NCBI RefSeq assembly: GCF_033153115.1
Contig: NW_026889766.1
Span: 2,480,001 to 2,544,000, forward strand
Length of the DNA: 64,000 nucleotides
DNA from: Saccostrea echinata
Lineage: Eukaryota
Direction: 5' to 3'
Shown in pieces: positions 27,781 through 29,061 of the stretch (its first letter is position 1; each line of letters starts with the position of its first letter). Under the pieces are notes generated by a model that was not told the DNA's origin, ran no database searches, and was given only the letters and a program-made list of their open reading frames with translations. The position numbers were made by a program, and so were the translations under genes.

Positions 27781-29061
27781 TCAATGACTAGTGTGTCGAA
27801 GAACCACGTCAGTCAGAAGATTTTCCAGAATTTCAAATCGACGACCGCCGATGTGCTTCGCTTGAAAGCGCGATATAACAACCGTCATATTTGTGACTTG
27901 TAAGTTCTGCATTATTTAGACTAATCTACGCCCTGCGCCGAACTCACCATCATCGTTGTATCCCTCGTGAGTTTGTCCGCTTGAATCTCGAAATCTGTAA
28001 ACAAGTATGTTGTGATCAGCTTTGGCATGGGATTGATCACAGAATGTTTTCTTGTACATGTCGCGCACTTGGTTATAGCACTCCGTTGTTGCCCCCATCC
28101 CTCGGAAAATGTTCCCTCCTTCATTTGTTTCCAACTCCGTCACTTTAATCTTCTTAAGCGCCTCTCTTTCTGCTTGATCCATTCCTAGGATTTGTTCTGC
28201 TTTTGGTTTCTGTACTTTATCTCTATGTATACTTCCATTTGGGAATACAAGTTTCTCTCCCACAATGCGTGTCTTAACGTTAGCTTTCCAGTATTTGTTG
28301 TTTAATTCTAATAGTTTCTTTCGATTTTCTGACAATTGAATTGGAGTTTATGGTGTGATGAAGAATGTTGAATTGTGTTGCAAGGAAGAATTCTGGTCGA
28401 TCGCCTCTGTTTGTTCTGTACGTTGATTTTTGTTCTCCTTCTGTGCCTGCAGGATCAAGTCCTTATCCGTAAATTTGTTGAGTCGCCCAGTGATGGTTCT
28501 TGGCTTCCCTTGTATTTTTTAACTGTTTCTGTGAATATTTGCGAAAGATGTATCTACTTTGAAATGCGTCTTGATAAGCTCTGGGATTTTAACAAATAGA
28601 TTTTCGCCATCTTCTTCAGGGAGATTATGAATCAAAATATTTTGTTTCATTGATCTCGATTTGAGATCAATGATTTCATTCTGATTTTTAATTACTGTTC
28701 TCTCCAGATTAATCACTATGGATTTCAACATGTTGACGTCTTCTCTGAGCGATCTGTTCTCTTGTCTCAGCTGCTGAAGTTCATCCTCTCCATCTACCTG
28801 CTGCTCGGCTATTAATTTGATTCTATAATCGAACCCGTCTTCTTCCCACAAGTCTTTCTTGATATCGCTTATTTCCTCGGTGAGATTTCTGATCGTCCTA
28901 AGTGAGTCCGTTATTTCCCCGAGGCTAGCTTGAAGACTAGGGAGTGAATGCACGGCACTGACCAACTCAGGTGTGAATGGGTTACCTGTAATACTCGGTA
29001 CAGAGAAAGTGTGTCCCTCTACGAGTGATTTCTGCTCACTGCGATTCCTATTTCTATTCAT
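27781..29061 (-). pseudogene. LINE ORF1: coiled coil, RRM-like region and C-terminal IMPACT/YigZ (UPF0029)-like domain
   Basis: One reading frame of ~427 codons with three in-frame TAA stops (28519, 28348, 27916). Motifs DLKSRSMKQNILIHNLPE, HR..KPRTI, then ADHNILVYRF..YNDDGEFGAGRRL..TVVISRF..KHIGGRRFEI. Confidence 0.8.

Follow-up and report, generated by a model that had tools for sequence, protein, structure and literature searches.

The window, the whole stretch of 64,000 nucleotides analysed here from Saccostrea echinata (contig NW_026889766.1, positions 2,480,001 to 2,544,000), contains on its minus strand, at 29266-23668, a decayed copy of a LINE of the L1 clade. The element begins with a 5' UTR (29062..29266), whose 5' end was set by alignment to close copies and which starts with the E-box-like motif GTCACGTGAC. 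It is followed by ORF1 (27781..29061, about 426 codons), a T-rich inter-ORF spacer of 659 bp with many ATGs (27122..27780), ORF2 with an APE endonuclease and a reverse transcriptase (23678..27121), and an A-run at a truncated 3' end (23668..23677), all on the minus strand; no target-site duplication was seen in the window copy. The ORF1 frame extends from the ATG at 29061 to the TGA at 27781-27783 and is interrupted in frame by three TAA codons (28519-28521, 28348-28350 and 27916-27918). These stops represent private decay of the window copy, since the three close copies examined all have sense codons at all three places. ORF2 lies on the same strand as ORF1, starts at 27121, contains several frameshifts and ends within the C-terminal zinc-finger region. 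It is matched by the Pfam families Exo_endo_phos (E 0.0012) and RVT_1 (E 1.8e-12). The window element shares 96.6% DNA identity with the copy L032, which extends further in the 3' direction.

ORF1 comprises three parts, the limits of the first two being approximate: a coiled coil (28651..28932, minus strand), an L1-type RRM followed by a CTD (28195..28644, minus strand) and, as the C-terminal module, the 'ancient' domain of the IMPACT/YigZ family, PF01205 (27784..28152, minus strand). The coil corresponds to the helices spanning 28-130 of a modelled intact relative, is present in a trimer model and carries a conserved, outward hydrophobic patch; the RRM and CTD are identified by Foldseek and VIA matches on the same intact relative's model, and the ancient domain by Pfam, a Yih1 match and VIA on the intact relative. 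The first-pass annotation had read the C-terminus of ORF1 as an IMPACT/YigZ-like domain in frame with the coil and the RRM, and this reading is borne out. The quoted peptide occurs unchanged on the minus strand and shares its reading frame with the coiled coil and RSMKQNILIHNLPE. With X placed at the stops, PF01205 matches the window ORF1 with an E-value of 1.6e-12 and 47.8 bits (cut-off 27), over residues 322-418 (28101-27811) and profile positions 7-104 of 107. The best solved-structure match of the domain is yeast Yih1 (6bqi, E 5e-8), and all five intact ORF1s score 53-75 bits against PF01205 (cut-off 27). The RWD domain is absent, as had also been stated: PF05773 has no match in the LINE ORF1s scanned with Pfam and matches three of four cellular IMPACT-like proteins. 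The Pfam family Transposase_22 was not matched at E 0.1 in any of the five intact ORF1s scanned. The identity of the element as an L1-clade LINE with an IMPACT ancient domain on its ORF1 is almost certain.

Two similar exon-like frames at 29692-30063 and 56386-56718 (minus strand), each combining a transmembrane stretch with a tyrosine-bearing tail, likely belong to paralogous receptor genes; the LINE starts approximately 430 bp downstream of the first. Additional retroelement-like fragments are located at 44540-44956 (minus strand), 14716-15204, 30478-30883 and 42613-43083. A weak zf-RVT match (E 0.004) was obtained in the fragment at 44540-44956, and no Pfam match in the two other fragments scanned.

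A search of the oyster genome with the domain gave at least 106 match rows, which after merging of 8 split rows correspond to 98 loci, including the window. The coil or RRM of ORF1 lies upstream of the domain in 90 of the 98 loci. APE was found at the expected distance at 76 loci, RT downstream at 71 and either of them at 80, which establishes the linkage to an APE-RT ORF2 that the first-pass annotation had proposed to look for; several of the 18 loci without either have ORF2 pieces shifted by insertions or deletions. An open ORF1 of at least 350 codons is present at 27 loci and an open ORF2 of at least 1150 codons at 13. The ORF1s fall into 11 subfamilies with mutual identities of 21-82%, and in all 11 APE is next. 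All four intact ORF2s scanned have Exo_endo_phos, RVT_1 and zf-RVT matches. The 98 loci are not all independent insertions, as flanks are shared among L044, L047, L055 and L063, between L099 and L100, and between L040 and L043. The first of these groups consists of one 5'-truncated copy at four places with identical flanks, which was therefore duplicated along with its surroundings, perhaps inside another repeat.

Poly-A tails, target-site duplications and dispersed copies show the mobility of the domain-bearing LINE. Copies within one family have in common a sharp 5' end and a poly-A tail, and target-site duplications of 12-17 bp flank 15 of 23 full-length copies, compared with 2 of 506 mismatched flank pairs. 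The 5' flanks of all 23 full-length copies are different (exact match). Thirteen of 23 full-length copies examined have the 5' terminal motif CACGTG, seen for instance at the 5' ends of L035, L042, L059, L078 and L146 and in the window at 29256-29265. A second 5' terminal motif, TGCGCATGC, which we take to be NRF1-like, occurs in 6 of the 23 (among them L083, L085 and L106). The two kinds of terminal motif are probably internal promoters. Contigs from four sequencing runs guessed to be RNA span parts of the element, from which neither expression nor silence follows.

Several structural variants were observed. The copies L084, L099, L100, L105 and L117 have internal deletions that remove most of ORF2 and spare ORF1, the 3' end and a portion of the spacer; they are possibly non-autonomous, ORF1-only derivatives. 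A joint near the deletion joint of L084 occurs in one of the contigs of run X4 too. In L085 (2748-3127), L082, L081, L087 and L121, the inter-ORF spacer begins with a tandem duplication of about 195 bp, which is present in some copies of the family and missing from others. The spacer measures 428-935 bp in the 11 domain-bearing subfamilies, compared with 265-291 bp in three domain-less families.

Among solved structures, ORF2 is best matched by human L1 ORF2p, with an E-value of 4e-98 across residues 9-1267, compared with 4e-21 for R2. Members of the Tx1 subgroup of L1 are recognized by RT placement with Tx1 and by sequence-specific targets or a zinc-knuckle ORF1. The zinc-knuckle pattern CX2CX4HX4C is absent from all 27 ORF1s searched.

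The domain is not universal in the lineage, a point on which the first-pass annotation is refined: the oyster genome also harbours sister L1 families whose ORF1 lacks it. Forty loci were chosen by RT similarity outside the domain set, and the domain was found in none of them within the 5.5 kb fetched upstream. Fourteen of the 40 have a shorter ORF1 (coil, RRM, CTD) near ORF2; most of the others have no ORF1 match, and many are 5'-truncated. The shorter, domain-less ORF1 ends with a SAWY-x-NG motif after coil, RRM and CTD, as observed in L146, L149, L151-L158 and L164. On an RT tree of 20 of 71 rows, from which near-duplicates and copies without an upstream ORF1 were left out, the domain-less families fail to group in a single clade (p-AU 8e-8). 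A single origin of either the domain-bearing or the domain-less elements is rejected on this unrooted tree at the same value. The ORF1s of L060 and L085 are only 27% identical, their ORF2s 65%. Because the RT-tree clades and the ORF1 and ORF2 identities conflict, ORF1 modules have been swapped, lost or gained more than once, and similar domain-less ORF1s on non-sister RTs point to swapping. Exchange of ORF1 between RT lineages is described for other LINE clades in part of PMC4120745. The domain is useful to the lineage and dispensable, recently active sister families being without it.

The domain-bearing LINE family is large in oysters and mussels. Named relatives come from Saccostrea, Ostrea, Crassostrea/Magallana and Mytilus, and the named protein closest to an intact ORF1 (98% identical) is from Saccostrea echinata itself. 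Several are annotated 'protein IMPACT homolog', and because these proteins have the architecture of a LINE ORF1, the apparent bivalve expansion of IMPACT genes is transposon-derived. In the oyster genome, about 93 of 94 PF01205 match rows are not the host gene, and 92 lie outside the two host exons. A profile search returned 635 clusters (50% identity, E up to 1e-30), the presence of the domain having been checked in part of these. RRM-CTD and domain are both near full length in 133 of 183 database relatives. In 18 of the 133, an extra low-complexity tail of 41-159 residues follows the domain (P0086, P0109, P0120, P0126, P0138, P0146, P0165 and others). The Atlas contains two Impact_N clusters of 242 and 57 members, and Mollusca is the commonest phylum among the 45 and 14 members with a record. 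Of 21 metagenome loci, 6 have the ORF1 RRM together with the domain, most contigs being too short to tell whether ORF2 is present; in one of the 6, the unrelated contig L183, APE lies downstream of the same kind of ORF1, and the fragments L197 and L198 have APE or RT downstream. Patterns made from the LINE domain found no relative in the viral contigs or prokaryotic genome contigs searched, and a metagenome scan with one distant protein gave no match.

L1 ORF1p trimerises and coats its own mRNA via its RRM and CTD. The model of an intact oyster ORF1 (L060), based on an alignment of 113 sequences, has a pLDDT of 92 and predicts a coiled coil, an L1-type RRM-CTD and an IMPACT fold. A Foldseek search, likewise proposed by the first-pass annotation, gave 13 matches at E up to 0.001, all of them human L1 ORF1p, Yih1 or YigZ-family entries, with 1vi7 and 2cve among the top ones; the E-value against human L1 ORF1p 2yko was 9e-8. 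By VIA, residues 292-411 superimpose on 2cve with Z 15.5 (rmsd 1.9, 110 aligned), the other YigZ-family structure, 1vi7, giving Z 14.9, and the RRM superimposes on the L1 RRM 2w7a with Z 11.1 (rmsd 1.9, 83 aligned).

A model with three copies of ORF1 scored 0.66, compared with 0.01 for the best control; at least 93% of the contacts are common to the runs and the pLDDT is at least 79. In calibration, 21 of 30 solved pairs from microbes reached the score mark, as did 17 of 29 from eukaryotes, and none of the single chains did (0 of 23 and 0 of 30, respectively). The three-copy job differs from this calibration in its number of chains, and the pass may stem from likeness to the solved L1 ORF1p 2yko. 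Beyond the coil core, the predicted interface of the intact relative takes in the whole of coil residues 100-112, helix 275-280 of the linker and, within the domain, residues 325-339 and 359-360. The best pairs listed are all coil-coil, and the domain-on-coil contact is read from residue lists in which pairs are not named. The linker helix and one face of the domain (325-339, 359-360) would thus touch a neighbouring chain, most likely at coil residues ~97-112.

Residues of the coil bear on the same contact. Large hydrophobics occupy the non-core positions 104, 108 and 110 in 87, 77 and 68%, respectively, of 111 domain-bearing ORF1s, compared with 1-14% at neighbouring non-core positions within 100-111, and position 107 is small (G, S or A) in 82 of the 111. 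Eight domain-less ORF1s, from ten loci tried, are mostly polar at 104, 108 and 110; they represent about three families of a separate ORF1 lineage, so that the contrast is confounded by ancestry. Together, the trimer model and the conserved hydrophobic patch suggest docking of the domain on the coiled coil, and we consider it probable that the domain docks in this way on ORF1p.

The domain is, judged from substitution patterns, under purifying selection. Between L042 and L050, the only subfamily pair with measurable dS, the domain has a dN of 0.12 and a dS of 1.2, and the ratio of 0.10 answers the question of selection raised by the first-pass annotation; the coil and RRM-CTD have ratios of 0.02-0.04. 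Three close pairs have too few changes, and five pairs at greater distance show a saturated dS (pS 0.74-0.80) with pN of 0.17-0.36. The mean identity among 113 sequences is 32% for the domain and 30% for the RRM, an equal degree of conservation. The signature residues are kept as follows, out of 113: S 77 (N in 29, the window's subfamily included), H 97, D 105, D 107, E 95 (D in 17), R 109 and R 111. The earlier proposal that a retrotransposon lineage captured the domain as an accessory module of ORF1 is supported, as it is a fixed C-terminal module in 11 of 11 subfamilies and is under selection.

The host IMPACT gene was found at one place, on C30 at 29.26 Mb, with the domain distributed over three exons. 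The LINE domain is intronless, multi-copy and mobile, whereas host IMPACT is split into exons. A search for RWD in the oyster genome did not return the host IMPACT locus, and the one match inspected is another gene. The domain is of the eukaryotic IMPACT type and not of the classical bacterial YigZ type, which narrows the initial assignment. Mean identities to 77 LINE domains are 28-31% for eight eukaryotic IMPACTs and 23-27% for eight prokaryotic YigZ sequences; the C-terminal RF motif of the LINE domains is common with eukaryotes, and GL is found in six of the eight prokaryotic sequences. Two residues fixed in host IMPACT are altered in the LINEs, K to G in 63 of 77 and the D of GPDRF to R or K in 46 of 77. 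The mean net charge is +2.6 in LINE domains and +0.9 in hosts, with overlapping spreads (sd about 3, n=8 hosts).

The domain tree, which is weak, covers 37 of 93 rows over some 120 columns and includes eight eukaryotic and eight prokaryotic sequences, with a single IMPACT from an animal. The LINE domains cluster together in this tree (support 74/97) and in a second one (79), and the branch that sets off the prokaryotes (80/84) leaves them with the eukaryotes. This comparison with host IMPACT, envisaged at the outset, rejects neither a placement as sister to oyster IMPACT (p-AU 0.43) nor one as sister to a short alphaproteobacterial YigZ (p-AU 0.28). The most likely donor, on identity and motifs, is a eukaryotic IMPACT. 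Since the LINE domain is without introns, we infer that it would have been retro-captured from a spliced IMPACT mRNA long ago. Recent capture from the oyster's own IMPACT is unlikely at a mean identity of 30.5% (best 43.6%), and bacterial contamination is ruled out by oyster-genome flanks, poly-A tails and target-site duplications. The short alphaproteobacterial YigZ is a stand-alone protein (L200:501-821 and L201:390-743, the latter of 117 aa) with a eukaryote-like G-G-D-R-F ending, and possibly links bacterial YigZ to eukaryotic IMPACT.

Among known systems, the oyster ORF1 resembles Type II LINE ORF1p (human L1 ORF1p; 2yko, 2ldy, 2w7a; Transposase_22) in the order of coiled coil, non-canonical RRM and CTD and in a predicted trimer. 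The element resembles human L1 in having an ORF1 followed by an ORF2 of APE, RT and zinc finger, a poly-A tail and duplications of 12-17 bp. Unlike human L1 ORF1p, it adds a linker and a 120-residue IMPACT domain after the CTD and has a hydrophobic patch on the coil surface, and the inter-ORF spacer is longer. With eukaryotic IMPACT/Yih1 (6bqi) it has in common an ancient domain above the PF01205 cut-off, the A-x-H-N, DDxE, R and G-x-x-RF motifs and the C-terminal position in a two-part protein; it differs in the lack of the RWD, an identity of about 30% and the two substitutions, K to G and D to R/K. The YigZ proteins of bacteria and archaea (TIGR00257; 1vi7, 2cve) have the same N-terminal fold and the S, H, DDxE, R signature. 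However, four LINE ORF1s score only 18-30 bits against TIGR00257 (cut-off 168), and the LINE protein ends after the first domain with no second YigZ domain (6-119 of 190 residues of 2cve align). LINE ORF1s with an esterase or a PHD (types III and IV) likewise carry a host-like domain within ORF1 and exchange ORF1 between RT lineages, according to part of PMC4120745; the oyster domain is a different one and stands on a complete L1-type ORF1p in the L1 clade.

The fusion is undescribed in the literature searched, a scope that lies outside Repbase, Dfam, subscription journals and unseen supplements. IMPACT and UPF0029 are absent from the main text of PMC4120745. UPF0029 is absent from the main text and one of the two supplement files of PMC5203782, a Pfam survey of L1 ORF1 domains that includes Crassostrea gigas. 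It is likewise absent from the main text and 12 of 33 supplement files of PMC10294476, on bivalve transposons. Repbase holds 14 L1-Tx1 entries for C. gigas (PMC10294476), which may include such ORF1s. An existing mention in Repbase, Dfam, supplements or other journals is the lesser possibility, though a real one.

The reading that we prefer, held at about an even chance as a whole, is that the selected ancient domain is a coil-docked, RNA- or ribosome-binding module of ORF1p. The coil of the element itself would serve as docking surface in place of the RWD of host IMPACT, so that three IMPACT domains would sit on the lower coiled coil of the ORF1p trimer. The conserved polar site would bind a conserved host ligand, most likely RNA or the ribosome, and this binding would hold new ORF1p on its translating mRNA during assembly of the ribonucleoprotein. 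RNA or the ribosome is favoured because IMPACT proteins ride ribosomes, the LINE domain is slightly more basic and the setting is a ribonucleoprotein; this choice of ligand, in line with the engagement of nucleic acid or ribosome suggested in the first-pass annotation, falls a little short of an even chance. Association with ribosomes is described for Yih1 and IMPACT in parts of PMC7140605 and PMC11088878, and part of PMC4503747 assigns the binding of ribosome, actin and Gcn1 by Yih1 to a stretch that overlaps with the RWD-linker part rather than to the ancient domain by itself. In the parts of PMC7140605, PMC4503747 and PMC6550387 consulted, no function is assigned to the ancient domain, and the yeast deletion has little phenotype.

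The docking itself could be the whole function: the domain would stabilise or gate the ORF1p coil, its conserved residues would be needed for folding and for the docking contact, and there would be no host ligand. Three residues of the conserved loops, N339, D359 and G360, fall within the predicted interface, coil position 111, beside the hydrophobic patch, is K or R in 87 of 111 ORF1s, and in Yih1 the ancient domain docks intramolecularly on the protein's own RWD, keeping it closed (part of PMC13094546). However, S/N305, H338, D358, E361, R386 and R396 lie outside the listed interface and are yet conserved in LINEs and eukaryotes and partly in prokaryotes, where there is no coil. In part of PMC4503747, the invariant features of Yih1 and YigZ are clustered loops treated as a site that may bind a conserved molecule. 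We regard a purely structural role as unlikely.

Catalysis would be another use of the conserved site, the S, H, D, D, E and R residues acting on RNA ends, nucleotides or protein modification during retrotransposition. The polar signature is retained over hundreds of divergent clusters, the fold bears a weak likeness, in the background range, to that of the endoribonuclease YicC (Z 6.1, rmsd 2.8, 85 aligned), and the esterase described in part of PMC4120745 is a precedent for an enzyme fold in a LINE ORF1. The set is nevertheless looser than expected of catalytic residues, with N for the serine in 29 of 113 sequences, H replaced in 16 and D for E in 17, and the parts of PMC7140605, PMC4503747 and PMC6550387 consulted report no activity for the family. 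An enzymatic role is rated improbable.

Slightly less probable still is that the domain, released from the coil, binds an RWD in trans, that of GCN2 or of host IMPACT, and so blunts GCN1-GCN2 stress signalling on the ribosomes that translate the element. The RWD is the one reported partner surface of the ancient domain, masked in closed Yih1 (part of PMC13094546), and the LINE kept exactly the ancient-domain half and dropped the RWD; the long, ATG-rich spacer could make translation of ORF2 sensitive to eIF2 status. Part of PMC7140605, however, identifies the GCN2-inhibiting half of IMPACT as the RWD, on which GCN1 binding depends as well and which is absent here, and an identity of only about 30% to the host domain is low for a mimic that tracks a host partner.

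A one-off chimera or neutral passenger, such as a processed IMPACT pseudogene in one LINE copy, would fit a dead window copy and sister families without the domain, but has next to no probability in view of the linkage in 11 of 11 subfamilies, the dN/dS of about 0.10, the 133 of 183 relatives with RRM and domain and the ~30% identity to the host. Linkage counts, database relatives, dN/dS and subfamily architecture rule out the one-off chimera; neither this outcome nor the lack of a UPF0029 match, the two results named beforehand as contrary to the fusion, appeared.

A bolder reading, which we hold as unlikely, is that a widespread LINE lineage of molluscs, and perhaps of other marine animals, turned the IMPACT/YigZ domain, conserved universally and with no function assigned, into a working part of its ribonucleoprotein that is latched on the ORF1p coil and acts on the host translation machinery, either as an RWD decoy silencing GCN2 signalling or as an RNA-acting enzyme. 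If true, it would be a retrotransposon counter-defence taken from the host and would reveal the function of the ancient domain. The selected mobile-element copies are divergent natural variants of the domain (635 clusters) for which retrotransposition is a scorable read-out, and the domain-less sister families are natural controls for its function. For the L1 clade, the fusion with an IMPACT domain is a new ORF1 architecture.
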